NCBI GenBank assembly: GCA_040753555.1
Contig: JBFMDZ010000001.1
Location: 12,693-76,692 of the forward strand
Length of the DNA stretch: 64,000 nucleotides
Reading direction: 5' to 3'
From: a bacterium
GTDB lineage: Bacteria > UBA9089 > UBA9088
A model generated the notes under the pieces. The model made no database searches. It was not told where the DNA came from and worked only from the letters and a program-made list of their open reading frames with translations. The first letter of the stretch is position 1; every line of letters starts with the position of its first letter. Shown here piece by piece: positions 2,728 through 34,570 of this stretch. Both the position numbers and the translations under genes were made by a program.

Positions 2728-3865
2728 ATCTTTTGAAGACAAGCCTAAATTCTCCGCCTATAAGGCTTATCTCTGGCGAAGGCAAACCTGCCTTTTTCAT
2801 TAGCCGAAACATTGTGGGAATGCCCAATCCAACATTATGAACCAATTTTAGCCTTAAAGCATGGGCAAAGATGATACGGTTTCTAACCGCATGGCATCCC
2901 AAATATAGCTCCTCAAGCCTTAATGTATTTAACAACCTGCCCGGGCTTAATACCTCTATCCTGTTATCAAAAACAAAAAGCCTGATTTGGGAGGGAAGAT
3001 TATACTCCCGGTGAACCAATGCATTAACAAGCCCTTCCTGAATTGCCGATAATAGAGGATTGGGTTCTGAAGCAGGTTTAAGAATCTCCTCCATTATCCC
3101 AAGATGCCTTTTTACAAACCTTGTTGCCTCCCTTTCCTGCTCATCAATCCTTCCTTCAATCTCTATCCTTTCAAGATACTTATGGCCACCTTCAAGGTCT
3201 CCCTCTGGAAACCTGATTGCGGTAATCTTTGCATAGGGTAGCCTTTTCTGGGGCTCTTTGCCATAGCAGATAAGCCCGCCAAGTGTTAGGTCGTCTTCAT
3301 AATTGCTTATTATTCCACAATCTTTTAGCCTTACCTTAGATGGTTCATCTACTATGCATAGCTCAGGCCAAGCCTTGCCAAGATAATCTAGGTCAAGAAA
3401 AGAGATTCCTGTATCTAAAACCGGTGCTTCATCAGGGTAAAAAGAGCCTGTAGATTGAAAGAGCCTCGCCAGCTCTTGTCTACTAATAATCCTTTTACTT
3501 GCTCCCACACGGATATAATAGACCCCTTTGTTTGTGCGGTATGGCCGGTCTAGCCCTTTAGGAATTCTAATCGCAAGGATGGTATGGCCATTTATCTTTA
3601 GCTTTTCCCAGGTAAGAAGCAAAGAGGGTTCTATATTATTTTGAGAAATATTTTCTATCAATTGTGTTGCCCTATCCATTGCTTTCTTTTCATCAAGTGT
3701 AGCAAGGGCTTCTCCCTTATCCGAAACACCAAGCAGGATAGTTCCACCCTCAGAGTTTGCCATAGCGACAATTTCAGCCGAGAGGTCATCGGGATGGGGA
3801 ATGTCTGATTTAAACTCCCACTTAGAATCTTCACCTATTTCCAATTGATCTTCTATTTTACCCAT
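2714..3865 (-). CDS. AlbA_2 (Schlafen-like) DNA-binding domain plus HATPase_c_4 protein. Putative ATP-dependent DNA-binding regulator, RecG C-terminal-like family.
   Basis: N-terminus WEFKSDIP...AMANSEGGTILLGV is the AlbA_2 signature. C-terminus LVNALVHREY is a HATPase_c_4-like motif. It overlaps the downstream STAND gene by 14 nt and the upstream hdrC-like gene by 13 nt. Confidence 0.55.
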   Translation of the reverse strand: MGKIEDQLEIGEDSKWEFKSDIPHPDDLSAEIVAMANSEGGTILLGVSDKGEALATLDEKKAMDRATQLIENISQNNIEPSLLLTWEKLKINGHTILAIRIPKGLDRPYRTNKGVYYIRVGASKRIISRQELARLFQSTGSFYPDEAPVLDTGISFLDLDYLGKAWPELCIVDEPSKVRLKDCGIISNYEDDLTLGGLICYGKEPQKRLPYAKITAIRFPEGDLEGGHKYLERIEIEGRIDEQEREATRFVKRHLGIMEEILKPASEPNPLLSAIQEGLVNALVHREYNLPSQIRLFVFDNRIEVLSPGRLLNTLRLEELYLGCHAVRNRIIFAHALRLKLVHNVGLGIPTMFRLMKKAGLPSPEISLIGGEFRLVFKRYGMV

Positions 3866-4311
3866 TTCTTTGGAAACAAGGAAATCTTTCCCTTTTTAAA
3901 CATAAGAAGACCAGCAAATATATCCTTAAATGGATTTCCCGATAAAAGATTATACTTAAGAATAAGGCCTAATTCAAATATCCTTCCATTTTTATTTATC
4001 TCATCCTTAAATGTCTTATGGAAGAGAAAGACATTTTTTAAAGCTGGCTTTATATTTTCTTGTTCTGATATGAGCCTTAATCTGCCCATAACACCTGCTA
4101 AATCTATTTCCTTTGGGCATCTAACACTACAGGTTTTGCAAAATGCACAAAGCCATATTGTCTTGCTTTTTAATGCAAAATCTATTTTATCAAGCTGAAT
4201 AAACCTGATAAGCCGATTAGGTGTGTAATCCATAAATTGGGCAATCGGACACCCGGCACTACATTTCCCACATTGGTAGCACTTTGCCAGATCGCTCTTT
4301 ATCGCCTCCAT
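3853..4311 (-). CDS. hdrC: HdrC-like 4Fe-4S dicluster protein (heterodisulfide reductase subunit C family).
   Basis: Two CxxCxxCxxxCP motifs (CYQCGKCSAGCP, CAFCKTCSVRCP). Size about 150 aa. Confidence 0.5.
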   Translation of the reverse strand: MEAIKSDLAKCYQCGKCSAGCPIAQFMDYTPNRLIRFIQLDKIDFALKSKTIWLCAFCKTCSVRCPKEIDLAGVMGRLRLISEQENIKPALKNVFLFHKTFKDEINKNGRIFELGLILKYNLLSGNPFKDIFAGLLMFKKGKISLFPKKWVK

Positions 4312-4315
4312 TGCG

Positions 4316-4531
4316 TTATTCTCTTAAGGCTTCTTGAGGCTCTTTTTCTTTTGCTTCGCTATTTAACTTTCCAGCTAATAGCTCTTCAATGGCGATGGGG
4401 ATTATCTTTACTATGTCTGTTTCAGAACCAACCCATCTATTTAACTCCCTTGACCTTCTTGCGAGTAGGTTAACAAGGTGAAATTTGCTCTTTGCATGCT
4501 TTAGCATCTCATCATAGTTATATAGCATCAT
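4316..4531 (-). CDS. rpoZ: DNA-directed RNA polymerase subunit omega.
   Basis: Motif NYDEMLKHAKSKFHLVNLLARRSRELN. Conserved rpoZ-gmk adjacency. Confidence 0.7.
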   Translation of the reverse strand: MMLYNYDEMLKHAKSKFHLVNLLARRSRELNRWVGSETDIVKIIPIAIEELLAGKLNSEAKEKEPQEALRE

Positions 4532-5081
4532 TTTCTCCTCCTTTTTTATTTAAAATAATTTCTTTTATCAAAGATATTGTTTTTTTTGGTGTTTCATTTA
4601 CAATAATATGGTCATAATGCTTTCCTTCTTCCATTTCATATTCTGCCTTACAAAGCCGCTCTTTTATTTTTTCTTGTGAGTCTGTTCTTCTTGTTCTTAG
4701 CCTCCTTTCAAGCTCTGACATTGATGGTGGAAGAAGAAATATAAGGAGAGCATCTGGATATAGGGATTTTATGTTCTTTCCGCCAACAACATCTATATCA
4801 AGAAGTAAATCATAATCCTTTGCCTCATCTAGGGTATGGCGTGATGTTCCATAATAATCTCCAAATATCTTCACCCATTCAACAAATTCATCATCCTCTA
4901 TCATCCTTTTAAACCTGTTAATATCTATAAACCTGTATTCCCATTTTTCTATTTCTTCCTCCCTTGGTTTTCTTGTGGTATAAGATACAGAAAATCTTAA
5001 ATCAGGGAATTCTTCTAATAGCCCTCTGCAAATTGTTGTCTTTCCTGTTCCAGATGGTGCTGAGATAACAATAATCATCAA
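4518..5081 (-). CDS. gmk: Guanylate kinase.
   Basis: SAPSGTGKTT P-loop and SVSYTTRKPR motif. Confidence 0.9.
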   Translation of the reverse strand: MMIIVISAPSGTGKTTICRGLLEEFPDLRFSVSYTTRKPREEEIEKWEYRFIDINRFKRMIEDDEFVEWVKIFGDYYGTSRHTLDEAKDYDLLLDIDVVGGKNIKSLYPDALLIFLLPPSMSELERRLRTRRTDSQEKIKERLCKAEYEMEEGKHYDHIIVNETPKKTISLIKEIILNKKGGENDAI

Positions 5082-5827
5082 TAATCAATCCCTACTAGAA
5101 AAAGCCCTTGTGAAGGAACAATCCAGGGAGCAAACCTTCTGTCTTTGGCAAGGATGATGGAAGATACATCATCTAAATTAAGAAGCCCGCTTCCAACCCT
5201 AATTAAGGTTGCCACAATACACCTAATCATATTATAAAGAAAGCTTACGCCTGCAATATCAAAAAATATAAGGTTTTCAGAAAAAATGCCCATTTTGGAA
5301 GAGATGACAATAGATTTTATCTCCCTTATACAATTTCTTCCATCTTGTCTTACAAACGAAGAGAAATCCTTTTTTCCAATAAAAACATTTGCTGCCTTTC
5401 TCATCATTTCTATATCAAGAAATTTTGGAAAAAAATAGCTATACCTTAAAAACATAGGTGATTTACAAGAATCATTTAGAACAATATACCTATACCTTTT
5501 TTCTTTACAATGCCTTGGATTAAATGAAAGCCCTACTTCGCTTATATCTTTTATAATTATATCATAAGGAAGAAAAGAATTCAAGGCATTTTTTATGTTT
5601 AAAATTGGAATATTAGAGATTGTTTTAAATGTTGCAACAAAAGCCAATGCATGCGCTCCTTTATCTATCCTTCCTGCACCTAGTATTTTTACCCTCTCCT
5701 TACAAACCTTAAATATAGCGCTCTCAAGCATTCCAGCAACCGTTGGCTTATCCTTCTGCCTTTGCCATCCATAATAATTTGTTCCATCATAGGCTATTGT
5801 AAGCTTGATGTTTCTAAATTTTTCCAA
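5078..5827 (-). CDS. truA: tRNA pseudouridine(38-40) synthase.
   Basis: IAYDGTNYYGWQRQ and GRIDKGAHA motifs. Confidence 0.85.
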   Translation of the reverse strand: MEKFRNIKLTIAYDGTNYYGWQRQKDKPTVAGMLESAIFKVCKERVKILGAGRIDKGAHALAFVATFKTISNIPILNIKNALNSFLPYDIIIKDISEVGLSFNPRHCKEKRYRYIVLNDSCKSPMFLRYSYFFPKFLDIEMMRKAANVFIGKKDFSSFVRQDGRNCIREIKSIVISSKMGIFSENLIFFDIAGVSFLYNMIRCIVATLIRVGSGLLNLDDVSSIILAKDRRFAPWIVPSQGLFLVGIDY

Positions 5828-6458
5828 TAGAGGTTATAAGCAAACTTGCCTCTTTGACACCATCTAATCCCAGAGCCTCGTTGATTTGGTCATCAAAAAA
5901 TGCTCCAATTGCACAACATCCCAATCCCATAGAGGTAGTAGATAAATAGATATTTTCACTTATATGCCCTACTTCTAATAGGACATATCTGTATGCCCTA
6001 TCCTTATATTTCCATTTGGTTCTCTCAAAGATGGCACTCATTATAAAACTTACAGCGCTTTTGTAAATTACATCCTGACCCAGGCAATATTCTGTAAATT
6101 CCTTTGCAAAATCACCCTTTTTTAATTCTTCCAAAGAATGGTCTTTCACAGAATAGTGGTATATTCCTTGGGGTATTTCACTTACGCGATTGATAAGGGG
6201 ATAGATTTCTATTGGATAAAGTGCTCCAGCTGAAGGTGATGCTCTTAATCCAGCCTTGCTAGTTATACCATTCGCACAAAAGAGTAATAAAGAAAGCTCA
6301 TCTAAAGAAATAGGCTCTAAAGAAAAATCCCTTAATGACCTTCTTTTCCTAATTGCCTCCTCAACACATAGCCCTTTATATTTAAAGGTATCTGGAAGTT
6401 TAATCTTTTTTGCCTTTGAATACCCTTTAAAGATAGGAGGTTCAATCATTCCATTCAT
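5814..6458 (-). CDS. Nitroreductase-family / SagB-type dehydrogenase domain protein.
   Basis: RKRRSLRDF motif and nitroreductase-fold length. Confidence 0.55.
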   Translation of the reverse strand: MNGMIEPPIFKGYSKAKKIKLPDTFKYKGLCVEEAIRKRRSLRDFSLEPISLDELSLLLFCANGITSKAGLRASPSAGALYPIEIYPLINRVSEIPQGIYHYSVKDHSLEELKKGDFAKEFTEYCLGQDVIYKSAVSFIMSAIFERTKWKYKDRAYRYVLLEVGHISENIYLSTTSMGLGCCAIGAFFDDQINEALGLDGVKEASLLITSIGKI

Positions 6459-6479
6459 TATATCATTTTATGGATAATT

Positions 6480-7208
6480 TTACAAATTTTTAACCAACTC
6501 CATTAGCCCTTTTGCATTCTTTATAGCATATGCTTCAAAGTCATTATTGAAATAGCAATGGACATCAATGCCATCCTTTAAAAATCCATTTATTTCATAA
6601 GCTAATTGCTTAAGCTCATCTAAAGAATAATCATAATTATACCAGCTAGTTGCTCCATGCATCCTGATGTAGACAAAAGGGCTGGTTGCTACAATATGTG
6701 TTTCAATCTTTGGCGCACTTACAATGCAGGAGGCAATATTGTTTTCCCCTAAAAGGCTAAATGTTTCATTATCAAACCAGGAATTATTCCGAAACTCAAT
6801 GCAATAAGAAAAATTATTGGGAAGCTCCTTAATAAAGCCTTTAAGCCTTGGAATATCCTTTTTAAGCGATGGTGGAAGCTGGAATAAAACAATAGATAAT
6901 TTTTCTTTTAGCCCTTTTATCCTATCTAAAAATATCTTAAGGGCTTCACTACAATTAACAAGCTTTAATAGATGGGTAATTCTACGAGAAGCCTTAAGGA
7001 CAAACTTAAAATTCTTTGGGCTTCTTCTATACCATCCCTTTATCATGCCCTCAAATGGAAGGCGATAGAATGAGCTATTTATCTCTACGCTTTGAAAATG
7101 CTCGCTATAGAATGAAAGCATCTCCTCCCTAGCAAGGGAAGGAGGATAAAAATTTCCATACCAATGCTCATAGCTAAAACCCGATGTCCCAATAAAAACA
7201 TTAGGCAT
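6480..7208 (-). CDS. DUF72 (YecE-like) protein.
   Basis: GTSGFSYEHWYGNFYP N-terminal signature. Confidence 0.7.
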   Translation of the reverse strand: MPNVFIGTSGFSYEHWYGNFYPPSLAREEMLSFYSEHFQSVEINSSFYRLPFEGMIKGWYRRSPKNFKFVLKASRRITHLLKLVNCSEALKIFLDRIKGLKEKLSIVLFQLPPSLKKDIPRLKGFIKELPNNFSYCIEFRNNSWFDNETFSLLGENNIASCIVSAPKIETHIVATSPFVYIRMHGATSWYNYDYSLDELKQLAYEINGFLKDGIDVHCYFNNDFEAYAIKNAKGLMELVKNL

Positions 7209-7438
7209 ATTTACTTTTCTCGTATATGTTTAGGTGGCTAAAATTCATTTACCTTAATAGACTCTTTAGACTCTACAGGCTTTCCTTAAATATTAGCTAA
7301 ACACATACAAAAAGTTCAAGCGTAGTTTGGGTAACCCAAGGCCAACCCTGGTTCACCCATGCCTACACCTCTCCTTTAAGTGCTTTTGCCAAATACATTT
7401 GTGAAAATGATTCATTATTTTTCTTTGCCATTTTAATC

Positions 7439-8602
7439 CTATCCTATTAAAAAATCTTTAGTAAGATATTCTTCAGAAACTTTCTTTTCTGCGGGTAAAT
7501 ATATTCTCACTTGAATATCTAATTTTGATAAATACTTACACATTAAAGCTCCAACATCTTGCCACTTTAAATTCCCAAGTCCACAGCCAAGTGCAGGCAA
7601 AGCCAGAGACTTTATCCCTTCTTTCTTATAGTTATCAACTATCCAATTCAACCCTTTTTCAATCCCTTTGATATCTCCACCTTCTTTCCAATGTTGTTTA
7701 GTTGGAAAAAGTAAAAACCATGTCGCACCATTTCCATTTTTTAAGGTAGATGGCTCATCAGCTAATTGATAATCAAGAGAACCTTCTCGCTTGTAAAGAT
7801 ATGGTTTCCCCATTTGTAATGTATGATTTCTGCATACATATTGATATTGAACATAGACATCGGGAAACTGCCATTTTGCACGAGAGGCAAGACCTTTTCC
7901 CATAATACCAATGCAATTAACACTAATTGTAAGTGTTTGCATTCTTGAAAAGAACATATCTCCGTCTGTTACATATAACAATGGGGTAATTTCTATCTCA
8001 CGAGAAGGTTTGAAAAATATATTTGGTTGGGGAACAACAGATATAGGGAACGATGATAAAAATTCTTTTATTTTATTAGCAATATTATGATCTGCCACAT
8101 AAATCGTATGAATATATTCTGGTAAAACCATTTCTGGAACAAGACACTCTGCCATTATTTTCCTTTTATCGCCGCTTTCTTCAGTCCACCATTCTTTTTC
8201 AAGTATTTTTGTTAATTCATTTAGTAGTGCCTGCTTTCCTTCTTTAGCTGGAAGTATCTCTGTAGCAAAACTAGCTGCATTACCGGTTGAGATAAAAATA
8301 TCATCACGGTTCAAAATGTCTTTCTTAACCGCAATAACTACAATATCTTCAATGGGTTTTTCGCATATAACCCTATATAACATAGGATTTCGTGGTTGAA
8401 AATATAGGTTTGCAAAATCCCACAAATTTTTACCATTTAATAAAATTTTATTACGACGACTTGCTATAATTTCTTTATCATAAATTGGTGTATAGTTGAT
8501 TCGGCGTTCTTCCACCTGATGATGAGATAAAATGCCATAGTTTAATATGGAAGACAAATTATCAATATGTGTGATATAATATAAATGTTTGATTGACGCC
8601 AT
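7439..8602 (-). CDS. Fusion protein: DarT-like ssDNA ADP-ribosyltransferase domain (DUF4433) plus TARG1/DarG-like macrodomain.
   Basis: N-terminus LYYITHIDNLSSILNYGILSHHQ...LYFQPRNPMLY matches the DUF4433/DarT signature. The C-terminal ~170 aa align to the TARG1/DarG macrodomain (ISVNCIGIMGKGLA..., WFLLFPTKQHW, LALPALGCGLGNLKW, IQVRIYLP). Confidence 0.6.
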   Translation of the reverse strand: MASIKHLYYITHIDNLSSILNYGILSHHQVEERRINYTPIYDKEIIASRRNKILLNGKNLWDFANLYFQPRNPMLYRVICEKPIEDIVVIAVKKDILNRDDIFISTGNAASFATEILPAKEGKQALLNELTKILEKEWWTEESGDKRKIMAECLVPEMVLPEYIHTIYVADHNIANKIKEFLSSFPISVVPQPNIFFKPSREIEITPLLYVTDGDMFFSRMQTLTISVNCIGIMGKGLASRAKWQFPDVYVQYQYVCRNHTLQMGKPYLYKREGSLDYQLADEPSTLKNGNGATWFLLFPTKQHWKEGGDIKGIEKGLNWIVDNYKKEGIKSLALPALGCGLGNLKWQDVGALMCKYLSKLDIQVRIYLPAEKKVSEEYLTKDFLIG

Positions 8603-9223
8603 TTTTCCTCCTAAATTTCCAATATTACACCCGCATCATTGCCAAATATGTCCACCACCCGCACAGCAATGGTTCTATTCTTTCTCTTATCCAGTGTTTC
8701 TGTTGCGATGATTGGGACTGTCTTTGCCTTTTTGCCATTTTCCCTGAATACCTGCCACTAGCTTTTGAAGGTGCAGCCATCGTAATCCCAGTCAATTGCC
8801 CAGTAATCTATTAAAACAGCGAAATTGTCCTTTGCCACCTTCATTAAAGCATTATAAGTTTCTTGCTCTCTGGCTGATGTTCGGCTAACCGTAATGTCCA
8901 TTAAGGCATATGTAAATAAGATTTATCTTGCCTTCATATCCTTGAGCAAGGAGGGCTTGCATTGCCAGAAGATTATCGCCCCAGATAAGCCTATTCATCT
9001 TTTGCTTATCAATCTCTTCTTCACCCAATAAACCATCAGTGAAAGATATAAGAATCTGTCTTTTATACTGCGGGTTTGGAATAACCACCTCTGCTGTCTG
9101 GAATTCTATATCCTTTGGATTAGGTGCCCTTCTTGGCTTTGTATCCCAAACCAGCCTTGCACTATCCTTTTTCCTCTGATTATTGCCATTAGCCATCCTT
9201 ATCTCTCTAATATTTCCTTCCAA
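8603..9223 (-). pseudogene. Internally deleted remnant of an N6/N4 DNA methyltransferase (RM-system mod-like).
   Basis: 8885-9223 encodes an MTase N-terminus (NRLIWGDNLLAMQALL...GKINLIYI) that ends prematurely. 8603-8880 encodes out-of-frame C-terminal MTase-like pieces (TVPIIATETLDKRKNRTIAVRVVDIFGNDAGVILEI). The catalytic core is absent. Confidence 0.5.
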
Positions 9224-9969
9224 TAGGGGTCAAATCTCTCTTTAGCAGATTGTAATGAGGGAAATTGTTTTTCGCAGACATCGCTAAAGCGTGCTAGGAC
9301 GCGGCGGTTGATTTTTTCCTGATTTTCAAAAATAGCTGTAGCAACAAAGGGAACTCCAAATTTCTCATATTGAAGACAGGTTATGGTAGCATCCCGACAT
9401 CTATCATTATTTAAAACAGCAAAAACAAAAAGTGGCCGTTTTGCTCCATTAATCCGACAATCAACGATATATTTTTTTGCTACATCGTGTTGGAGATCGC
9501 TATAATTAAATACTCGCCTATCCTCTGGTATCTTTTCCTCTAAAAGGGCTTTAAAATCTTCAAGGAATGCTCCTCGCACACCCTCTTTTGTCCAATAAGA
9601 AATGTCTGTTATCTTAATTAGCCCTTGAATAAAACTATAAAGGGCATCACCATAATTTTCATTTTCAATATAAGCCCTTAACTCACCTTCAATATTTTTG
9701 ATTTTGTAAGACCCAAGAACTGTATCTATAATTTTAGCCCGTCTTCCTTTTTCAATATCAATTTCATCATAACTTATATGCATAAAAGTATGCCCCTCAT
9801 CGCTTAAATACCAATGTCCATTTTCTTGCTTTAAGAGAATGGGCAGGTGGTCTCCATCATCAAACATAAAGGGAGTAAACACGATATACCTGTCTATCCC
9901 TTCGCTTTCAAGACTAATTTTTTCGCAAACCTTTTGACGAAATATTTGGACGATAGTTTCAGGTATCAT
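9199..9969 (-). CDS. Hypothetical protein, DUF1828/DUF1829-like. This family is often linked to RM loci.
   Basis: 256-aa ORF recalled as DUF1828/1829-like; no defining motif was identified. It overlaps the MTase remnant. Confidence 0.3.
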   Translation of the reverse strand: MIPETIVQIFRQKVCEKISLESEGIDRYIVFTPFMFDDGDHLPILLKQENGHWYLSDEGHTFMHISYDEIDIEKGRRAKIIDTVLGSYKIKNIEGELRAYIENENYGDALYSFIQGLIKITDISYWTKEGVRGAFLEDFKALLEEKIPEDRRVFNYSDLQHDVAKKYIVDCRINGAKRPLFVFAVLNNDRCRDATITCLQYEKFGVPFVATAIFENQEKINRRVLARFSDVCEKQFPSLQSAKERFDPYWKEILER

Positions 9970-10293
9970 AGAAAATCACCTCCATTAAAAAGTTCAATTT
10001 GTTTATTTTCTGGCTTTTTAAAATTATTATCTTTAAGAAAACAATTTAGTCCAGAATGAAAATCTTGATATGTTGTAACTGGTAATATTTTTGGTTCCTT
10101 AAGCAATTCTTCTATCTCTTTATCTTTTAAAATTCTCATTAAACCGCACTCTCCAAACCACCTCTCTGGTCTGGAATTCTATATCCTTATTATAACATCC
10201 TTTAAATTTATTATCAAGGATGAGCCGTTTTCTCTCTGAATAATGAAAGAAGCTGATAGGTTAGTTCCGCAAGCCTTATAGGTTTGAATTTCT

Positions 10294-10944
10294 TTATTTT
10301 ATTGAAAGGGAATGAGCCAATCTTAAAGGCTCAGGGATTCTAAATTTAAGAGAAAGTTTTAGGATAAATTCTTTTGTCTCCTCCAGGGTTATCTTATATC
10401 CGGGTGAAGCAAATACAGGTGCTACATTATCCCTTGTTCTTAAAACTATACCGATTGCCTCTTTATTCTTTTTTATAAAGCAAAATGAGCCTTTTTTCTT
10501 ATCTATCTTTCCAAAATCTCCAAATAGATGGCTCTTTGCACATCCTATTGATGGCTTATCCAAAAGGATTCCAATGTGTGTAGCCAGACCCATTTTTCTT
10601 GGATGGGCAATACCCTGTCCATCAAAGAGAAAAAGATTGGGTTCGCTCTTTAGCCCCTTTATCGCCTCTAAGATACAGGGTCCTTCACGAAATGAAAGAA
10701 AACCTGGAATATATGGAAAACCTACCTTTGTCTTTAACTTTACTTCCTCTACTACCTTAAGTTCAGGAAAGTTTAAAACAACAATTGCACAACAACCATA
10801 TTCATCCCTAAATGCTACATCAACGCCAGCAACTGATACTACCTCTTGCTCAATCTTTTTTAAGACAATCCTCTTTGCAAGGTTTTTCTGTATCCTTTTT
10901 GCTTCATCTATGGCTACATCAAATGGATGAAGATTAAAGTATTT
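10294..10944 (-). CDS. nfi: Endonuclease V.
   Basis: The full-length alignment is readable: GVDVAF...YIPGFLSFREGP...DGQGIAHPRKMGLATHIGILLD...LRLAH. No ATG/GTG/TTG start exists upstream of the internal Met at 10593, so the start is uncertain. Confidence 0.6.
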   Translation of the reverse strand, partial: KYFNLHPFDVAIDEAKRIQKNLAKRIVLKKIEQEVVSVAGVDVAFRDEYGCCAIVVLNFPELKVVEEVKLKTKVGFPYIPGFLSFREGPCILEAIKGLKSEPNLFLFDGQGIAHPRKMGLATHIGILLDKPSIGCAKSHLFGDFGKIDKKKGSFCFIKKNKEAIGIVLRTRDNVAPVFASPGYKITLEETKEFILKLSLKFRIPEPLRLAHSLSIK

Positions 10945-11017
10945 CGTAACTATTTTTAGTATTTATGCAAAATATAATATCATTTTTAAGATAAAAAAGC
11001 AAGGGCTTTCACAAAAA

Positions 11018-11212
11018 TTAGAGGCTTCGGTTTCTATTGTTTCTTGTCCATTCTTTAACTATCCATTCTCCATAAATGTTAATAAGTTTTTCTTTACACA
11101 TCTTAAGTCGTTTTGGAGTATACATCTGTGGCGCCTGATGAATCTTTCTATGACAGGTTGGACAGACAACTATAAGATTATCCTCTGTATCTGCTCCACC
11201 TTTACATTTTAG
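11018..11212 (-). pseudogene. HNH endonuclease C-terminal remnant.
   Basis: The reverse strand encodes ...KCKGGADTEDNLIVVCPTCHRKIHQ... There is a stop immediately upstream and no N-terminal region. Confidence 0.4.
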
Positions 11213-11308
11213 TACTATTTAGGTGCCGTAATAATCGTTGTTTAAGGAGCGAATTTTAAAACAGACTTTAGTAGAACCACCAGTATTATCTAACAAAAGG
11301 AAAATATC

Positions 11309-11572
11309 CTAAGGAGATATTTCAGAATAGGAAACCCCGCAATCAGGACAGGATAGGGAGGATGAAAAAACAAGCTCATCCCTTCCAGCAAGGACAATAA
11401 GGCTTCCCTTTGAAATGGCTATTCCTGTCTCAACAGAGCCAGAAAGCCCGGTGATTACTGTGAGCTTATTCCTTGGGATTTCTACATCAATATTCTTAAG
11501 GTTATGCTCCCTAGCACCTTTGATAATAATATTTTCTTTCATAATCCTAAAAAGACAAAAAGGTCTCCTCAA
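11309..11572 (-). pseudogene. uvrA: UvrA remnant. The N-terminal 35 aa are fused to a zinc-finger fragment; the rest of the ~940-aa protein is deleted.
   Basis: [32 protein letters not shown] is followed directly by ...[13 protein letters not shown]. Confidence 0.55.
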
Positions 11573-12770
11573 GCCACATTATGTATCCTTTTATATCTTG
11601 ACTAAAGACATCCTTTGATAAAGGGAAATCTTCTTCACACAAAGAGACTATTCTTCCCTCTTTAATCTTTAATTTAGAAAATAGATCCTTGAATCTCTTT
11701 ATTGGGTCTGCCATCTTAAGATTAATGGTCTTGGACATCTTAAATTCAACAGGATACAATGCCTTATCCCTTTCTATAATCAAATCAATCTCTAATCCAT
11801 TATGGGTTCTTAAATAGAAGAGATTTGGTCTTTGTCCATGGTTAAAGAAGAACTTAACTGTCTCCTGGATGCAATAATTTTCAAAAAGGCTTCCTGCCAT
11901 TGGCCCTTTTATCAAATGCCCCTCATCCTTTAATCCTGTGAGGTAGCAGACCAAACCGCTGTCTAGGAAATAGACCTTTGGGTTTTTGGTAATCCTTTTT
12001 CCCAGATTCTGATAATAGGCTGGCAGAAGGTAAATTAGCTGGCTTGCTTCCAATGCAGAAATCCACTTTTTAACGGTATTTACTGCTACCCCTAAATCTA
12101 AAGAAAGGCTACTTAGATTTAAAACTTGGGCGCAACGGCTGGCTAATAGCTGTAAGAATCTCTGAAAATCCCTTAAATTACCTATGTTATAAAGAGAGCG
12201 AATATCCCTTTCTAGGTATGTAGAGATATAACTTCCATACCAACGAGAAGAATCCCTCTTTTCAAGGCAAACTTCAGGGAAGGTTCCTTGTAGACAACTA
12301 TGGATAAAATAGTCCTGGCTAGTCATTGATTTTAGAAAGGAGATATTTTCTATCTCCCCTTTAGCAAATGGCAATAAGACTAAAATACCAACCCGACCAA
12401 CTAATGTTTCGGTTAGATTTTTCATCAAATTAAAGGCACAAGAACCTGTCATAATGAAACGACCCTTTTTTTGCCTATCTTTATCAATAAGCATCTTTAT
12501 AAAGGAGAGAATTTCTGGCACATATTGAATTTCATCAAATATTACCCTATCTCCTGCTTTTTCTAAGAAGAACTTTGGGTCTAAAAGTGCCCTTTCTCGT
12601 AATAACGGGTCATCAAAGGAAAGAATTTTATGCGACTTGGCAAAGATATGTGCAAGTAAAGTAGACTTTCCTGTCTGCCGTGGGCCAGTTAAGACAACGG
12701 CAGGGAATTCTTTAACAAAGGCTTTAAGTGATTCCTCAATTTGACGATGAATATACACCTTCTTTACCAT
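11547..12770 (-). CDS. AAA+ ATPase with DUF4143 domain (COG1373 family).
   Basis: [16 protein letters not shown]-loop, 407 aa. Confidence 0.7.
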
Positions 12771-12836
12771 AAGTCATATTATAATATAAAAAGGGTTATC
12801 TGTCAAGACAAATTTGCATTCTTATTGCATAATTTC

Positions 12837-14642
12837 CTAATTTTCTGTCTGTGTTCCTATATTTTCTGTTTCTGTCCCTATTTCCATTGTCTCTGTTCCA
12901 GGCTCAATTGGCTCTATTTCCTTTATTCCAAAATATCCTGTTAAAATTTTTCTTGCAATAGGTGCTGCCTCAATTCCACCCTGTCCACCATGCTCAACAA
13001 GGACAACAACAACAATACTTGGGTCTTCAACCGGAGCATAGCAGACAAACCAGGCATGGTCTTTTCCCTGTGGATTCTGTGCTGTTCCTGTTTTCCCTGC
13101 AATCCTAATCCCTGGGATATATGCACCCCTTCCTGTTCCAGAAAGAACAACCTCCTCTAACCCTTTATCCAAGAGGCTTTTGGTTTCAAAAGACATATTT
13201 ATTTTCTTTTTTAAAACAGGCTTTTTCCTTATTACCCTTCCATTTGGCTCTTCTATATATTGGACAATATAGGGCTTAAATATATTACCAGAATTTGCAA
13301 TTGAGGAAACTAAAACAGCCATTTCAATAGGTGTTACAAGAAGGTATCCCTGTCCAATGGAAAGATTTATTGTATCGCCTGCAAACCATCTTGTTTTAAA
13401 AATACGCTCCTTCCAGGATGGAGATGGAATTTTTCCCTTAATTTCATAAGGAAGGTCAATGTCTGTTAGGGAAGAAAGGCCAAATATCTTTGCTTGCTCA
13501 ATTAGTTTGCCTGCTCCTATTTTTAAGCCAAGTTTATAAAAATAGATGTTGCAAGAATGGGAAAGGCCAGAGATAAGATTTACCATTCCATGGCTTTGTT
13601 TCCCAAAACAGAAAAATTTCCTATTTCCTACATCAAACCTTCCTGTGCATTCAATGTATTCGTGGGGGTCTATAACTCCTTCTTCTAACCCAAGATAGGC
13701 ATCAACAATTTTAAATAGAGAGCCGGGTGGATAGCGAAATTGTATTGCCCTGTTTGCTAAGGGATAGGATGGATTAAAAATGGTCTCTTTTGCCTCATTT
13801 GGTGAGAGCTTTTTAAGAAAGAGGGAAGGATTAAAACCAGGCTTACTCACCATACACAAAACCTCACCTGTCTTTGGAGACATAGCAACAATTGCTCCAT
13901 TTTTATAAAGGGCTTTTTCTCCTATTTCTTGGAGGTTTTTATCAATTGTAAGATAAAGATTGCATCCAGAAATTGCCTCTTCTTTCCCCAATATCCGGAT
14001 TGTCCTTCCAGAGACATTTGTCTCAATAACATCCCCTCCCATCTTTCCTTTAAGAATATCTTCGTATGCATTTTCTATGCCACTTTTTCCAATCCTATCG
14101 TCAATAAGATAACCCTCTTTTTCTTTAAATTCCTTCTCTGTGATGGGTCCAATATAACCTAAAAGGTGTGAGGCAAGCTCTGAATTCGGATAATAACGAA
14201 GAGGTTTTGCATCTATAACAAGGGATGGCATATCAAAAAAGGCAAGTGCTATCCTTAAAGCATTGTCCTTTGAAATATTTTCTATAATTGTGGCTGGTTC
14301 AAACCTGCGAAGAGATTTTTTTTTCATGCTTTTCTTTGCCTTTTCTCTATCAAATGGAACAATAGAAGAAATCTTTGATAAAATACCCTCTATTTGTTCA
14401 TCTGAAAGGCTTTCTTGAATAATGGATATGGAAAAATTAGCTACATTTGTTGCCAAAACCTTGCCTTTTCTATCAAATATCATCCCCCTAGATTGGGGGT
14501 GTGGAATTATTCTTATCCTATTCTTCAAAGACCTGGCTTTAAAATAACCTCCCCTTATTATTTGAAGATAAAAAGAGGATAAAAGGAGGATAAAAAATAA
14601 CAGAAAAAATATTATATAAAGGGAGGAAATTTTCCTTTTCAT
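12837..14642 (-). CDS. mrdA: Penicillin-binding protein 2 (peptidoglycan D,D-transpeptidase). It has a repeat-encoded acidic C-terminal tail.
   Basis: N-terminal TM segment plus transpeptidase module. It lies downstream of mreD. The tail is EPGTETMEIGTETENIGTQTEN. Confidence 0.85.
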   Translation of the reverse strand: MKRKISSLYIIFFLLFFILLLSSFYLQIIRGGYFKARSLKNRIRIIPHPQSRGMIFDRKGKVLATNVANFSISIIQESLSDEQIEGILSKISSIVPFDREKAKKSMKKKSLRRFEPATIIENISKDNALRIALAFFDMPSLVIDAKPLRYYPNSELASHLLGYIGPITEKEFKEKEGYLIDDRIGKSGIENAYEDILKGKMGGDVIETNVSGRTIRILGKEEAISGCNLYLTIDKNLQEIGEKALYKNGAIVAMSPKTGEVLCMVSKPGFNPSLFLKKLSPNEAKETIFNPSYPLANRAIQFRYPPGSLFKIVDAYLGLEEGVIDPHEYIECTGRFDVGNRKFFCFGKQSHGMVNLISGLSHSCNIYFYKLGLKIGAGKLIEQAKIFGLSSLTDIDLPYEIKGKIPSPSWKERIFKTRWFAGDTINLSIGQGYLLVTPIEMAVLVSSIANSGNIFKPYIVQYIEEPNGRVIRKKPVLKKKINMSFETKSLLDKGLEEVVLSGTGRGAYIPGIRIAGKTGTAQNPQGKDHAWFVCYAPVEDPSIVVVVLVEHGGQGGIEAAPIARKILTGYFGIKEIEPIEPGTETMEIGTETENIGTQTEN

Positions 14643-15082
14643 AGCCTCTTTCTTATAAAAATAAAGATTAAAGAAGCAAGGAGAGAATTATACAAACCCT
14701 CCTTTAAAAGATGAAAAAAATTAAGCAAAAAACCCTCAAAAAGAAAAAGAAGAAATAAAGAAATAATGCCAGAAAATATGGTTGATAAAAAGACAAGGAA
14801 AAAGATAATATAAACCCTATGGTATATCCTCTTTGAAAAAATGCTTACCAATATTGCTATTATAGAAAAAGACAAAGCGTTTATTCCAAAACGCCTTATT
14901 CCAAGCAAGTCTAAAAGTATGCCGCAGAAAAATCCAAAAAAACCTGCGCTATACGGAATACATTTCAAGGAGGCAAATATTGTTGTTATAAGAAGAAGGT
15001 TGCAAGATGTATTAAAGAGAATGAGTATTCCTGATGCTTGAACAAGAAACGCAAAAAGAATAATTATTGCCAAAAACACCAA
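14639..15082 (-). CDS. mreD: Rod shape-determining protein MreD-like polytopic membrane protein. TTG start.
   Basis: 147 aa, about 5 TM segments, immediately upstream of mrdA. Confidence 0.5.
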   Translation of the reverse strand: MVFLAIIILFAFLVQASGILILFNTSCNLLLITTIFASLKCIPYSAGFFGFFCGILLDLLGIRRFGINALSFSIIAILVSIFSKRIYHRVYIIFFLVFLSTIFSGIISLFLLFLFEGFLLNFFHLLKEGLYNSLLASLIFIFIRKRL

Positions 15083-15132
15083 TTTATTTTAAACTTTTTA
15101 TTTAAAAAATGGCAAGGATTGGTGTATTTGTT
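15056..15132. repeat. Diverged direct repeat, copy A (about 77 bp). It contains the mreD start and a truncated hdrA 5' end (MARIGVFVL*). Its partner is at 34628-34709.
   Basis: aagaataattattgccaaaaacaccaatttattttaaactttttatttaaaaaatggcaaggattggtgtatttgtt matches 34628-34709 with a few mismatches and indels. Confidence 0.8.
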
Positions 15133-15286
15133 CTGTAATTCAGAAATAACGATTAAGTATGTGTTAGCTATTAGCTTTTGGCTTTTAGCGATTAGCCTTT
15201 TAAACAAGAGAAAAAATTTACAAATTTAGAGATACTTGCACCTACGAAGTGCAAATATATTTTTGCGTTTCTGCGGTAGCATGTTA

Positions 15287-16061
15287 TCATTCAATATCTC
15301 CTTCCATCTTTAATATAATATTTTGCAAATGTTTCAACCTTTCTTTTTCTACTTTCCAATACCCTCTTCTTGCGGATTCTAACAGTAGTTCGTTTATCTT
15401 CATAGTGGCATATGGATTGTTCTGCTTAAGTCTGTTTCTCATCCCCTCATCAAATATTAATCTATCAGCGACCTTATCAAATACCCAACTTTCAACCTTG
15501 CCTGTAGTGGCAGCAAAAGCAAGAAGATATTCTACCCTATCTTTTATCTTCTTTGCGCCATGAAAATCATGCTTTAACATCCCTTCTATCCAAATAGGAT
15601 TAAGTGTTCTTGTTCTTGTAGCCCGCTCAATCGCTATCTTTAAATCATCTACAACCACTTCCTCTTCTGTAGAATCTATAACCAAAATCTCTGCCTTTTC
15701 TCCTCTCTTATCCTGAACTGTTCTTGATAGTCCTCCTAAAAATTCATAATAATGATCTAGGTCTGTAACCTCGTACTCTGTGTTATCCCTTTCCTGAGTT
15801 ACAATATCAATGGATTTAAGCAAATTGGAGAATATCTTCTCATTTTTCTCTATTCTTCCTTTGAAATAGGCATAACTCATACTATCATCATAACTCTTGA
15901 CTAAGTCTTTTTCATCTTTCCAAGCACTACTTTCAACTAATGTTCTCATTGATGTCGCATATTCTGTTGGTGAAGGTCCAAAGATTCTGGCAAGTGCGAA
16001 ATCTTTTAGTTCGCCTTTCAATTCTAAAGAATGTTTTCTTATATCCCATTTTTCTTCAATG
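15287..16061 (-). pseudogene. CobN C-terminal remnant. It covers the last ~250 aa of cobaltochelatase CobN and is fused by deletion directly to the 3' end of the upstream chlID gene.
   Basis: The 244-aa ORF aligns to the C-terminus of the intact CobN (SAWKDEKDL, LNPIWIEGM, NNPYA..LLESARRGYWK). Homology continues upstream of its TTG start (EEKWDIRKHSLE versus EEMNFVRKHSLA), across the chlID stop. Confidence 0.65.
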
Positions 16062-18032
16062 TTAAACCTCGGTAAATTCTCTGATTAGACAAGAGACATT
16101 CTCTGCTTTTATCTCTTCTAAAGAATAATACTTCCCACCTAAAGCCAAAGAGAGTTCCTGCAATCTTCCTAAGCGGACAAATCCTCTTTCTGTATCTATT
16201 ACCAGAGATTTTACCCTTGCTTCTTTTATCCTGTAAGCTATAGCCTTTGCTTCTTCAAATGGTTTACCTCCCTTTTCTATAGAGACATTAGCTTTGCCAT
16301 CGCTAACCAACACCATTAGGGTAGCAAGTCTTTTGTTCTTTCTTAATTCTTGTTTAATAATCTCAAATCCTAATTGCAGGCCTGAAGAAAGAGGAGTTCT
16401 CCCTCCAGTAGGCAACTCAGATAGTTTTTGCGAAGCCAATTCCACACTGTTGGTAAGAGGAAGCAAGACCTCTGCTCTATCTTGCTTGAAACTAACCATA
16501 CTTACTCTATCCCTTTTTTGATAGGAATCAGTGAGTAAAGAGAGAATAGCCCCTTTGGCAGCTGACATTCGTTGTGAGGCACCCATAGACCCTGAGGCAT
16601 CTACCACAAAGACTATCAGGTTACCAACTTTCTTCTCCCTCTGCTTTTGCCGAATATCTTGAGGTGTAATAATTATTTTCTGATTTTCTGAAACCTTATT
16701 TCTTTTTATCTGATGTGGTGCTGCTGCTCTGAATGTAGCATCAAAGGCAATATCATCCTTTCTCTCCTTGGGTAAGCAGCTCTTGATATACCTACCCCTT
16801 TTATCATCAGAAATAGTCTTGCTTCTTCTGCCAGTCCCCTCTTTTAGCTCTCGTTCTTTTGCCAGGTTTAACTCTTTTACCTGAAACTGCCTATCTACAT
16901 CAAAGAGAGTCTCTTTGCTTGCGTCTTGCCTGGCCTGAGGCTGGCAATTGTTCATTTCCTTATCCTGATTCTGATAGCCATCTGTCTGTTTCTTCTCTTC
17001 CTTATGCTTCTTAAAGGTCTGTTCCAGCTTTTGTTGTTCTGTCTTTTCTCCCTGGTGAGGCTTTTTTCGTATTCGGTGGGGCAAAACAAACTCTGCTGCT
17101 TCCTTGACATCATCCTCTGTAACTTCTGTGCGTTGGTTGAAAGCGGCAATTGTTTTAGCTGTCTTCACCATAAATATATCTGCTCGGTGGCCATCTACTC
17201 GCATATCGACTGCTATCTTGGCAATTAGGTCTAACATATCATCAGGAAAGACCACATCCTTAAGTAATCTGCGAGCTGTAAGGATTGCTTCACTCAGTCT
17301 CCTTTCTTCTTTTTCCCACTCAGCAGCAAATTTAGCTGGATCTTCCTCAAACTGCTCTCTTCTTTTGATGATTGTAACCCTCTCTTTAGGCTCGTCTATC
17401 CCCTCAATATTCACACATAAACCGAATCTATCAAGCAATTGAGGTCGCAATTCCCCTTCTTCAGGGTTCATGGTGCCAATAAGGATAAAATGGGCAGGAT
17501 GAGAGTAAGAGACTCCTTCCCTTTCAATTGTATTTATACCCATAGCCGCAGAATCAAGTAGGACATCAACAATGTGGTCATCTAAGAGATTTACCTCATC
17601 TACATAGAGTATGGCTCGATTTGCATCAGCCAATACTCCTGGCTCAAACCTCTTTTCTCCAGTCTTTAGGGCATGTTCAATATCAAGGGTTCCAACTACC
17701 CTATCTTCAGTTGAGCCTACAGGGAGATTGACTACCTGTATCTTCCTTTTAATTACTGGAAGGTTTTCTCCTTGGGTCTTTCGATTACGGCATTGCTCAC
17801 ACATCAATTCTTCCCTCTCAGGATGGCAGCTGAATGGGCAGTCTTTGACCACCTCAATCTCTGGCAAAAGATTTGCTAATGCCCTGGCTGCAGTTGATTT
17901 GGCTGTCCCTTTTTCTCCTCGAATAAGTACCCCAGAAATCTGAGTATTTATGGCATTTAAGATCAAAGCCTTCTTCATCCGCTCTTGACCAACAATAGCA
18001 GTAAACGGAAATGTTATAGCTTTACAACTCAT
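16062..18032 (-). CDS. Mg-chelatase-family ATPase, ChlI/ChlD fusion (AAA+ plus vWA/MIDAS), paralog 1.
   Basis: [10 protein letters not shown]-loop and ChlI-like N-half. C-terminal vWA domain ([12 protein letters not shown]). Confidence 0.85.
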
Positions 18033-19138
18033 CTTTTACCTCCTTTAACAGGAAGATTAAGCTCCTCAGGGTAGGTCCAAGTTCCTTGCAATTCCATCTT
18101 CCAAAATCTCTTTAGCATCTCTTTATGCACAGCCTTTGGCAAAAGATCTGGAAAAAGTTCAGGGTGGAACCATTTTGCCTTATAACAAGTACCTATAACC
18201 TGTCTTGGTCCAGCACAAAGCTTTGAATGGATGATGTAAACCCTCCCTTCCTTTACTGCCTTTATAAGATTTAACCCTTCCCTGTGCATGATCTCATCTC
18301 TAATTGCCTTCATAGCTTCTAAAGAAGGTATACTGCCAACCCCTTCAACCCAAGGAATCTTTATGATAATATCAGGGTCTTTCTCTACAACCCATTCAGG
18401 ACTCATTATTGGGGAGCGAACAGGTTGTCTTCCTACACAATTTATCCCACCTGCTATCTCTATCTGAATCTGCGTAGGACTCTTATACATAAATTTCCCC
18501 CATGGTGTTTTCATTGAGTTTTCTCCTTGAGCCGTTGATTGATAGGGTTTGAAGACCTCACAGAATATGCTTGGCTTTTTTTTAACAGGGATACCTTCTG
18601 TTTTCTCCCTAATCATATCTATCTTACTATTTATAAATTCCTTTAGCTGATTTGCTTCTTTCTCTCTACCAAGCAACTTTCCCATCTTTTCAATAAATTG
18701 GAGGGTTTCAGCAAGCGTCCAAACCCTAAAGCAAAGAACCCTTATCTCTGCTCTCTCTAACTTCTCTATCACCTCTTTCTCTGTCCACTGATAGGCTATA
18801 ACCAAATCTGGCTTAAGTTCTATGATCCTTTCAAGATTTGGAGTGACTGTACTCTTTCCCACTGATGGCTTCTTACGAAGCTCAGGAATATATTCACCCT
18901 CAGGGTTGCAGATGCCTACAATTCTTTCTCCTTCTTTTAAGGCACAGATAACCTCAGCAGGATAGCCAGTCAAGACCACAATTCGCCCTGGAATACTGGT
19001 AAAAGCTGCCTTTCTTCCCATTTCATCGGTTATGACAATCCCTTTTGAAAGACTCACTTCCTCTTCTGGTTTTGGTGCGCAACCGGCAATAAAAACCATA
19101 AGAAAGATGATCAATGCTATCCTCATTTTTACTTTCAC
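18029..19138 (-). CDS. ABC transporter periplasmic substrate-binding lipoprotein (FecB/BtuF/CeuE class III), paralog 1.
   Basis: Lipoprotein signal ([11 protein letters not shown]). Class III substrate-binding fold of the Fe/Ni/cobalamin family. Likely ATG start at 19126. Confidence 0.75.
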
Positions 19139-19164
19139 CGTACGTGTTTAGCTTCGCTAAACAA

Positions 19165-19290
19165 TTGCAAATTGTAAATTGCAAATTGTAAATTTCAAAT
19201 TGAGAGAGGATGAATTTTTTATAATCATTATTTTTTTACCTCTTTAAATTTACAATTTAAAATTTGCAATTTAAAATTTACAATTCCAAA
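19165..19290. repeat. AT-rich AAATTGTAAATT-type tandem arrays in inverted arrangement. Related arrays lie at 22187-22312 and 50124-50175.
   Basis: caaattgtaaattgcaaattgtaaatt...aatttacaatttaaaatttgcaatttaaaatttacaatt. Confidence 0.7.
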
Positions 19291-19353
19291 GCTAATGGCT
19301 AAAAACAAGAGCCCGTAGCTAAACATATACTAAAGGAGCTAAACACATACCTT

Positions 19354-20325
19354 TCACCAAAATATTGCCAATCCAAAGATAAATATTATTGTTATTCCAT
19401 TTCTGATTATCTCTGAGATACCCACCAACTGTAAGCCTATCTTAGGACCAAATATTCCTATATAATAGGGCATAATATATTGAAACACCATGACAACACT
19501 CGAAAGAACACTTCCGATAAGGAGTGAAAGCACCACACCCTTTTGGGTAAGCTCGCCAGCTGATAAGAGGCTACCTGCCACAGTATAGGCAGCATTTGAG
19601 TGTGCCAAGAAGGCAGCAACTATTCCCAATCCTTCAGATGGTATAGGGAAATAAAGAATCACTCCCTTAAGTAGATGAGATAATCTCTCAAAAACCCCTA
19701 ATTCTATCAATAAGCAAGAGAGAATCAAGGTTGGAATTATTACCATAATTATCCGTTTAATCGTATAATTAGAATTCTTCAAGGCAGTACAGAACGCCTC
19801 TTTTAAAGGAAGAATCTTTTTCTTTTCAATACTTGTCTTTGAAGCAGCCCTTTTTTTTAGTATAAGTCTTGCCACTATCATTAGAAGTGATGTTTTAACC
19901 AGAGCTACCAGAACCAGAATAAGGAAGTATAAGAGGCCAGCAAGTCCTAAAAGAGGCAAAAGTATAGGCAACATACTCCGCCAGTGCATGAGGATTGCTG
20001 GAAATGTATTGATCATGGCGGCAAGGAATAACTCCTTCTTTTCAATAACCCCCTTATTATAATAATTAGCAAGCATAGAATTGGCAGATGTAGGTGAAGC
20101 AAAGGCAGAAAGAAAGATTATCCCACATTCATCCTGTAGGTGAGAAAATCTTGTAATTGGTCTTGCCAGAAAGGATAGTCTATCTACCCATCCTAAAGAG
20201 ACAATGAACTCAGCCAGTATAACTCCTAAGATAATGATAGGTACTGTCTTCAGAAGCAACCAACCTGCCATTGTTAAACTACTTAATAATATCTGGCTCA
20301 TCCCACTAACTTGGTGAAAGGGCAA
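19354..20325 (-). CDS. Polytopic membrane protein, nucleoside-recognition (Gate) domain-like. Putative transporter component.
   Basis: 323 aa, about 8-10 hydrophobic segments, co-oriented with the ABC genes. Confidence 0.3.
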   Translation of the reverse strand: MPFHQVSGMSQILLSSLTMAGWLLLKTVPIIILGVILAEFIVSLGWVDRLSFLARPITRFSHLQDECGIIFLSAFASPTSANSMLANYYNKGVIEKKELFLAAMINTFPAILMHWRSMLPILLPLLGLAGLLYFLILVLVALVKTSLLMIVARLILKKRAASKTSIEKKKILPLKEAFCTALKNSNYTIKRIIMVIIPTLILSCLLIELGVFERLSHLLKGVILYFPIPSEGLGIVAAFLAHSNAAYTVAGSLLSAGELTQKGVVLSLLIGSVLSSVVMVFQYIMPYYIGIFGPKIGLQLVGISEIIRNGITIIFIFGLAIFW

Positions 20326-22137: not shown

Positions 22138-22346
22138 TGTATGTGTTAAGCTTCCTTATGCTAAAGAGCCAAAAACGCTTTCTTTAATTGTAAATTTTAA
22201 ATTGTAAATTTTAAATTGTAAATTTTTTTAAAATACAAAATCTAAATCAAAACTTCTTCATTCCTCATTTCATTTTACAATTTGCAATCTACAACTTGCA
22301 ATTTACAATTATGTTTAGCGAAGCTAAACACGTACTTTCTTTTGCT

Positions 22347-29237: not shown

Positions 29238-29293
29238 CCTGCTTTTCCCCTTCCTACTAAAGCTTCTGTAATTTAACCACAGATGAACACAGA

Positions 29294-31706: not shown

Positions 31707-31718
31707 CTGGCTACCTTC

Positions 31719-33944: not shown

Positions 33945-34075
33945 TTTTTTACCTCCTTTTATGTTACTTTTTTAAAATTCATGCTACCAAAAGTCTACCA
34001 AAAAAATTTATCTCATGTCAATAAAAATTTATTACCTTTTTAAAATTCGTGCTACTTAAAAGAAAAAAAATATCC

Positions 34076-34495: not shown

Positions 34496-34570
34496 AAGTC
34501 AGACCTCTTTTATAATATTACTTTTATAAAAATAGTAGCACAAGCTTTAAAGAAATGTCAAGCAAAATTT

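Follow-up and report, generated by a model that had tools for sequence, protein, structure and literature searches.

Why do several genes, packed into one short block of a bacterial contig, keep both of their ends and lack what lay between them? The question is raised by a 64,000-nucleotide (nt) stretch of contig JBFMDZ010000001.1 from an uncultured bacterium (GenBank assembly GCA_040753555.1; lineage UBA9089; UBA9088), hereafter the window, which has a G+C content of ~37%. Gaps and fragments concentrate at 7209-11546, with lesser clusters at 15083-16061 and 56237-57742; outside the block the window is densely filled with long intact open reading frames (ORFs), so the decay is local and the genome is not otherwise degenerate. 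The gene remnants of the block all lie on the minus strand and are read in the order 11572→7297. A first-pass annotation, made from the sequence alone, had listed a shortened uvrA, a shortened HNH nuclease, a methyltransferase without its core and an endonuclease V gene (nfi) without a start codon; all four are present on the minus strand. Pfam, PADLOC, NCBIfam and PDB searches, tblastn and alignment to full-length homologues added four remnants to these, i.e., a second Mod fragment, a PDC-M24A remnant, an N-terminal Res remnant and a uvrA remnant past its stop codon. The block is probably the eroded core of a defence-gene hot spot in turnover, lying between an ATPase gene and a DUF72 gene and worn down by ordinary illegitimate deletions. 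It is ordinary gene decay and not a new mechanism, a new instance of a known phenomenon.

Gene remnants of the block

The uvrA remnant (uvrA') opens with an ATG at 11542 and joins the N-terminus of the protein to a later segment, much as first described. Its first piece (11435..11542, minus strand; codons 1-36, ending GLSGS) was identified by PDB UvrA, NCBIfam and collinearity with a sister genome, and matches UvrA residues 23-58 of PDB 9gxk/2r6f (i-Evalue of the stretch 1e-10); the NCBIfam UvrA equivalog is matched only at positions 2-44, with a score of 58 against a cut-off of 1147. The second piece (11246..11434, minus strand) corresponds to residues ~239-304 through UvrA matches at 221-304 and 242-294, and consists of 41 codons, a TAG (11311-11309) and then 21 codons, DIFLLLDNTGGSTKVCFKIRS. 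It is collinear and in frame with the unambiguous first piece, alongside which its stretch reaches an i-Evalue of 8e-4. About 200 codons were lost in frame at the junction between the two pieces (J1, 11435|11434), and everything after residue ~304 is gone at a second junction (J2, within 11245-11222). The Walker A motif now reads GLSGS|VETG and has lost the lysine of GKS. Some 100 UvrA-derived codons are left, compared to ~940 amino acids (aa) with two ABC modules and the Walker A motif GxxGxGKS/T in complete UvrA. Orthology is indicated by position, as the remnant follows the same ATPase gene as the sister's uvrA, and by the N-terminal ABC sequence that is present. Judged by its sequence, uvrA' is a pseudogene.

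Directly downstream, the HNH nuclease is reduced to its C-terminal part, as the first-pass annotation stated. The remnant (11018..11245, minus strand; Pfam, PADLOC and PDB) holds the C-terminal half of the motif (KGGADTEDNLIVVCPTCHRKIH) and a 39-aa tail, matching Pfam HNH at positions 24-46 of 47 only (E 1e-6), PADLOC mREase_IV at 229-258 of 277 and McrA (PDB 6ghc) at 233-269 (E 4e-5). A TAA (11221-11219) stands at the expected position of the catalytic histidine, the upstream cysteine pair is absent, and the beta-beta-alpha-metal motif is incomplete. A search of plasmids and phages found no full-length close relative of the remnant. The losses in uvrA and HNH follow from two separate deletions plus nonsense mutations.

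The PDC-M24 genes repeat the pattern on a smaller scale. The PDC-M24A remnant (M24A'; 9966..10139, minus strand; 57 aa) consists of an N-terminal stretch of ~24 aa and a C-terminal stretch of ~30 aa, with ~95 codons missing in frame. Its ends, traced by three-way alignment, match the genes that precede DUF1828 homologues on contig L158 (156 aa; 61% identity at the N-terminus) and on plasmid pRSB223 (147 aa), and the pRSB223 gene is itself PDC-M24A in PADLOC (5e-52). The 57-aa ORF has no PADLOC hit; M24A is normally ~146-166 aa long. It retains a 4-nt overlap with the gene after it, an intact DUF1828 protein of 256 aa that is PDC-M24B (9199..9969, minus strand; Pfam DUF1828 4e-25; PADLOC 7e-21) and matches a 260-aa L158 homologue over its full length.

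The type III methyltransferase gene (mod) was described as having both ends and no catalytic core, and alignment agrees: residues 1-99 and ~566-669 remain. We mapped the pieces on the intact 669-aa Mod of contig L070 and on eight other full-length homologues (615-741 aa). The N-terminal piece (8909..9196, minus strand; ending ...INLIYI) was identified with the L070 Mod and PADLOC MTase_III and is identical in Logan contig L001; it shares 72% identity with L070 Mod aa 6-99 and stops directly before motif IV (DPPF). The C-terminal piece (8611..8910, minus strand; PADLOC MTase_III, tblastn and alignment) carries an internal stop at 8760-8758. The two are joined out of frame at 8911-8908, with ~466 codons missing, and cover positions 59-105 and 520-614 of 616 in MTase_III; Pfam PF01555 gave no hit in the remnant. 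The product (mod') is without motif IV (DPPY/F), the S-adenosylmethionine-binding motif I and the target-recognition domain. The res remnant (7297..7431, minus strand; L070 Res and translation) comprises the first ~42 codons, has an in-frame TAG at 7365-7363 and is 68% identical to L070 Res aa 8-38 (E 1e-7), without the helicase (ResIII) and nuclease domains. A second, diverged type III mod fragment (10156..10227, minus strand; residues ~18-42) was found by tblastn with full-length Mods, by alignment and by repeat D1, its last 33 nt being 91% identical to 9115-9083.

A widespread conserved short Mod ORF was considered, the word-index hits all being ≤168 aa, and was rejected after an exhaustive search and L070 gave Mods of 615-741 aa; the short hits are contig-truncated or otherwise disrupted. 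A Mod ORF, P0150, is cut after ...LIY like the window's and is uninformative, as it lies at a contig end. The type III Mod N-terminus is highly conserved among P0122-P0240 (up to 87% identity; sources labelled Bacillota, Proteobacteria and Methanoperedens), and these ORFs are often disrupted in varied ways: P0126, P0129 and P0136 have a common foreign tail after ...HKMTI, P0163 and P0194 have internal deletions, and P0236 has a UvrD-like N-terminus attached at NPKDIDFQT, the stretch that is best conserved in the second mod fragment of the window. That fragment also contains the best sigma-70-like site of the block (10217-10189, minus strand; TTGATA-17-TATAAT with TG, 11/12), ~50 nt ahead of the start of M24A'. 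M24A'-M24B-mod'-DarT-macro may be transcribed from this putative promoter; promoter-like hits in the region are in total not above chance.

Endonuclease V and the ancestral backbone of the locus

The nfi gene (10294..10962, minus strand) is a complete frame without a canonical start, as established from Pfam Endonuclease_5, homologue N-termini and the DNA itself. Endonuclease_5 is matched at 2-197 of 198 (E 2e-67), and the PYIPGxLSFRE wedge/metal motif and other conserved motifs are visible in the alignment of nfi homologues. No ATG, GTG or TTG occurs from the in-frame TAA (10965-10963) to codon ~124. Homologues begin M(K/R)(H/Y)(L/F)NLH and the window reads T-K-Y-F-N-L-H, so that an ACG at 10947-10945 is aligned with their Met1; in contig L074, nfi aa 2-217 align to 10944-10303. 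The ACG, as the alignment reads, replaces the ancestral nfi ATG, in keeping with the earlier description of a full-length gene without a canonical start. The NCBI annotation (P0001) starts the gene at ATA 10962-10960; P0001 and a second NCBI protein, P0241, are both 100% identical to products of the window and are encoded on one 94,822-bp contig.

The nearest genome available, sister genome MAG236 (a metagenome-assembled genome, MAG; GCA_040753475.1; contig L002), shares the gene order of the window from mreD over mrdA to the ATPase. After the ATPase it continues with a normal uvrA for 139 codons until the contig end, and similarity between the two ends at 11436, exactly at J1, where the sister continues with UvrA residue 37 onward. 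The first-pass annotation had looked to sister genomes for an intact gene, and a normal uvrA 5' end stands at the same site. The uvrA start is 82% identical between window and sister, which otherwise agree at 84-94% in mrdA (87%) and at 96-100% across the ATPase. This upstream flank is an intact AAA_14/DUF4143 ATPase (11547..12770, minus strand; Pfam AAA_14 and DUF4143) and a PADLOC candidate, PDC-S01 (E 2.5e-98). The gene (window 11544-12770 against L002 4668-5891) has 98.6% nt identity to the sister, and the high identity has sharp limits at the gene ends; the pattern indicates that this gene alone was recently exchanged horizontally or converted. It is correct that rodA is missing downstream of mrdA, as the first-pass annotation noted, but the sister lacks it as well, so this is no part of the decay; more distant relatives have a RodA-like gene after mrdA.

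On the other flank, the DUF72 gene starts at 7208. A search for DUF72 in MAG236 and two related MAGs placed the gene after ruvA. Window and sister therefore cease to be syntenic inside the block, and DUF72 does not lead to the sister sequence downstream of uvrA. A more distant relative, L074 (JGI 3300014149), has the gene order ATPase-nfi-NUDIX-DUF72, with orthologues 68%, 54% and 62% identical to the window's. Thus, nfi belongs with the two flanks to the ancestral locus, and what else lies between the flanks is lineage-specific and variable; in L072 the equivalent interval holds NACHT and other genes. Seen against this backbone, nfi is an ancestral resident of the locus and not island cargo.

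Origin of the deletions

Two explanations of the geometry had been offered at the outset, a recurrent deletion mechanism such as recombination between short repeats, and decay of an integrated restriction-modification or mobile region. The second fits the content of the block: type III mod/res, a type IV-like HNH, PDC-M24, PDC-S01 and DarT-macro are clustered, and the ATPase flank was recently exchanged. No integrase or transposase was seen in the block, no tRNA genes were found and no tRNA target was seen in the block, and Rfam families gave no match.

The sequence of events that we infer starts from an ancestral order of uvrA, a small HNH gene, nfi, a two-gene PDC-M24 system and type III mod-res with DarT-macro wedged between. 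At least five separate illegitimate deletions (0.3 to >2 kb), together with nonsense and start-codon mutations, would have inactivated uvrA, HNH, M24A, two mod copies and res. The ATG of nfi was lost as well, and the ATPase, M24B and DarT-macro are still intact. A deletion within one dispensable gene would always leave both ends; one reaching a gene end would strip the neighbour's stop, ribosome-binding site or start. The genes are tightly packed: M24A' and M24B overlap by 4 nt, M24B and mod' are 2 nt apart, mod' and DarT-macro 8 nt, and DarT-macro and res' 7 nt, DarT-macro has its Shine-Dalgarno sequence within the final bases of mod', and the M24B start overlaps M24A'. Both ends would be kept because, with such packing, only internal deletions persist. 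Selection on the surviving genes (DarT-macro, M24B, the ATPase and perhaps nfi) would thereby have filtered the deletions to internal ones.

The junctions themselves look unremarkable. A repeat search found no direct repeats flanking any of them, and they have no motif in common; inverted repeats on either side of the block (I1, 28 nt, 71%) do not exceed chance. Repeat D1, the 33-nt repeat of 91% identity, was considered as a deletion substrate and rejected, being the second diverged mod fragment. The breakpoints of uvrA, mod and M24A could be mapped by alignment to full-length homologues, as the first-pass annotation had advised. The microhomology for which it also proposed to look is small where it can be read: overlap at the mod junction is at most 2-3 nt (ACATATGCC). 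At J1 the window reads TCT against TCG in the sister, and in UvrA proteins (I/V)ET is usually preceded by ...DS, which suggests an overlap of perhaps 3-4 nt. Such small overlaps point to nothing beyond ordinary microhomology in the joining.

A specific recurrent mechanism that makes end-preserving deletions genome-wide, through short repeats, a site-specific system or the conserved 5' and 3' ends of mod as substrates, is therefore unlikely, even though three deletions that keep both ends (uvrA, M24A and mod) fall within 3 kb. The Mod-family ORFs P0163 and P0194 do show assorted internal deletions, and elsewhere in the window partial duplications border inserted segments (an 87-bp repeat around 19.5 kb; a copy of the ftsK 3' part behind hicBA). 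Yet the junctions show neither direct repeats nor a common motif, and the overlap at mod is no more than 2-3 nt; of the three deletions two keep the reading frame and one does not, the remainder of the 64 kb is intact, and the CobN and ftsK fragments, which had been thought to have the same geometry, differ from it. CobN' (16042-15290, minus strand) consists of the C-terminal part alone (aa 1023-1285), shares 35% identity with the intact CobN (26321-22347) and directly adjoins the stop codon of a ChlI/D gene. The ftsK fragment (56453-56989, plus strand) partly duplicates the intact ftsK (53847-55850) 600 bp upstream, covering aa 406-626 at 84-95% nt identity with a single gap of 133 nt. The in-frame junctions of M24A' and uvrA' invite another reading, in which the short ORFs are functional mini-genes under selection (M24A' as a coupling leader for M24B; a Mod N-terminal peptide or a UvrA(1-36+239-...) protein as regulator or decoy). 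M24A' keeps its start and its 4-nt overlap with M24B and has a near-consensus promoter just upstream, but uvrA' lacks the Walker A lysine and runs into decayed, stop-containing sequence, and the two pieces of mod' are out of frame. The search gave no conserved short homologues that share these junctions, the short Mod hits being contig-truncated or differently disrupted, and chance alone would give in-frame joins in about a quarter of cases, which makes mini-genes very improbable.

The source is a metagenome-assembled contig, and the deletions could in principle be collapses or mis-joins in an artefactual assembly or chimeric MAG whose real genome has intact genes. A second assembly, the Logan contigs of run SRR29635778, was built from the same reads and is not fully independent evidence. 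Contig L001 is 100% identical to window 455-10511 and contains the mod, M24A and res junctions, and contig L069 is 100% identical to 11477-15131. The doubt about the assembly, also voiced in the first-pass annotation, is largely answered for these two segments and stands for 10512-11476, where J1, J2, the HNH remnant and the start of nfi are located; exact-product look-ups found no Logan contig spanning it. The contigs end at 10511 inside nfi and at 11477 inside uvrA codon ~32, and no repeat within the window explains these breaks, which may reflect strain heterogeneity or a second copy elsewhere. No repeats that could cause a collapse lie at the junctions. The extra in-frame stops inside uvrA', HNH', mod' and res', like the diverged sequence around them, are not produced by mis-joining intact genes. 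We therefore consider an artefact very unlikely and, for the part that Logan covers, the added nonsense codons, the reproduced junctions and the repeat-free junctions indicate true pseudogenes and not collapses.

Several points weigh against erosion of a defence hot spot by ordinary deletions. Between the Logan contigs 966 bp (10512-11476) are without second-assembly support, and the second uvrA piece is modest by itself (E 0.007). The loss of uvrA and the damage to nfi are read at this locus only, and another genomic copy is possible. Only 139 codons of the sister uvrA are available, so the ancestral right-hand breakpoints are absent and microhomology is not measurable there. The reading frame is kept in two of the three internal deletions, a possible hint of expressed mini-proteins; the chance of two or more in three is ~0.26. 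Finally, the survivorship argument for the geometry is inference and not a test.

The DarT-macro gene and possible loss of repair functions

The gene that survives in the mod-res junction is an intact single-polypeptide DarT-macro of 387 aa (7439..8602, minus strand), identified by Pfam, PADLOC and fused homologues. Its start is separated from the mod stop by 8 nt, and its end from the res ATG by 7 nt. Pfam scores are 2e-44 for DarT and 3e-7 for Macro, and PADLOC scores 4e-38 for DarT and 6e-45 for DarG, the DarG model being matched only at positions 4-152 of 329; NCBIfam DarT/DarG scores are below the equivalog cut-offs. Full-length fused homologues (L078-L085) occur in several metagenomes with 55-70% identity, as standalone genes beside HEPN/nucleotidyltransferase pairs, and in plasmid records the DarT and macro parts are usually separate genes. 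No viral match was found. An intact mod-DarT-macro-res arrangement was sought elsewhere, and none of 80 metagenome DarT-macro loci had mod or res nearby. The window records a dead type III operon in which a DarT-macro cassette lies between mod and res.

The lesions that DarT makes, ADP-ribosyl-thymidine, are known targets of RecF recombination and of nucleotide excision repair (PMC7003065). That uvrA is lost and nfi crippled next to an intact DarT-macro might accordingly be more than collateral, a UvrA-less lineage being fully dependent on the in-cis macro domain, although we regard this as quite unlikely. Such dependence, if real, could make DarT-based abortive infection sharper or leave the host addicted to the cassette. 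In a weaker form, this free-living-type lineage may truly have lost nucleotide excision repair and endonuclease V and be a natural mutator. The locus is a clean natural case of a lineage possibly deficient in nucleotide excision repair that has a DarT-macro fusion.

More broadly, the block illustrates that defence-island turnover can take neighbouring housekeeping repair genes along, and that pseudogenes keeping both ends would follow from tight operon packing rather than from a special mechanism. Annotation pipelines will predict several spurious short ORFs in the block (87, 57, 103 and 112 aa) and give nfi an ATA start.

Other features of the window

Further defence-like genes lie at window 1-3865 (minus strand), where a NACHT-HEAT STAND NTPase (>914 aa, running off the window) accompanies a Schlafen/AlbA_2-HATPase_c_4 protein. 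DNA repeats in the HEAT region of the NACHT-HEAT gene account for the other end of Logan contig L001.

A hicB/hicA toxin-antitoxin pair (window 55922-56989, plus strand) stands between the intact ftsK and its partial duplicate, and the arrangement suggests a putative cassette insertion that duplicated the 3' end of its target gene. A 19.5-kb segment (15141-34628) is absent from the sister, in which an hdrA-like gene and mreD are divergent neighbours. In the window an 87-bp direct duplication (15054-15140 and 34629-34715; ~91%) of the intergenic region and both gene starts borders the segment, which contains NikR, a TonB-dependent receptor, two ChlI/D-CobN-ABC-transporter modules and a PD-(D/E)XK gene. 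By this structure the segment looks like a Campbell-type insertion, or else the substrate of a repeat-mediated deletion in the sister. A 1514-aa ORF (45560-50104, minus strand) has FlgE/F/G D1, FlgE D2 and rod C-terminal domains only at its ends and, if real, would be an unusually long flagellar hook-type protein.

Comparison with known systems

The window gene resembles DarTG in having a DarT ADP-ribosyltransferase and a DarG-type macro domain, and differs in fusing toxin and macro domain in one 387-aa ORF, with the C-terminal DarT-binding half of DarG absent. The intact type III operon of L070 has the same Mod N-terminus (RKKDSARLVWDTKPRRAPNPKDIEFQTAEVV...NRLIWGDNLLAMQALL), Mod C-terminus (IDYWAIDWDYDG...VRVVDIFGNDA) and Res N-terminus in canonical order, whereas in the window the catalytic motifs and the target-recognition region are deleted, Res is 42 codons long, and DarT-macro occupies what is a 2-nt mod-res spacer in L070. 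Miniature inverted-repeat transposable element (MITE)-like elements likewise have their ends kept and their middle gone, but the block has no terminal inverted repeats, target-site duplications or multicopy distribution.

Erosion of pseudogenes by deletional bias in bacterial genomes is an established population-genetic model. The window matches it in its multiple independent deletions and nonsense mutations in dispensable genes, in the lack of long junction repeats and in the restriction of losses to non-essential DNA, and differs in an unusually uniform geometry, three genes keeping both ends, which we attribute to operon-style packing. Defence islands offer the closest parallel for the content: the window co-locates type III restriction-modification, a type IV-like HNH, DarT-macro, PDC-M24, PDC-S01 and nearby NACHT and Schlafen-like ATPases between conserved flanks, with content that varies among relatives and one cassette recently exchanged. 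The difference is that this island is mostly dead, and its erosion also hit uvrA and the nfi start codon.

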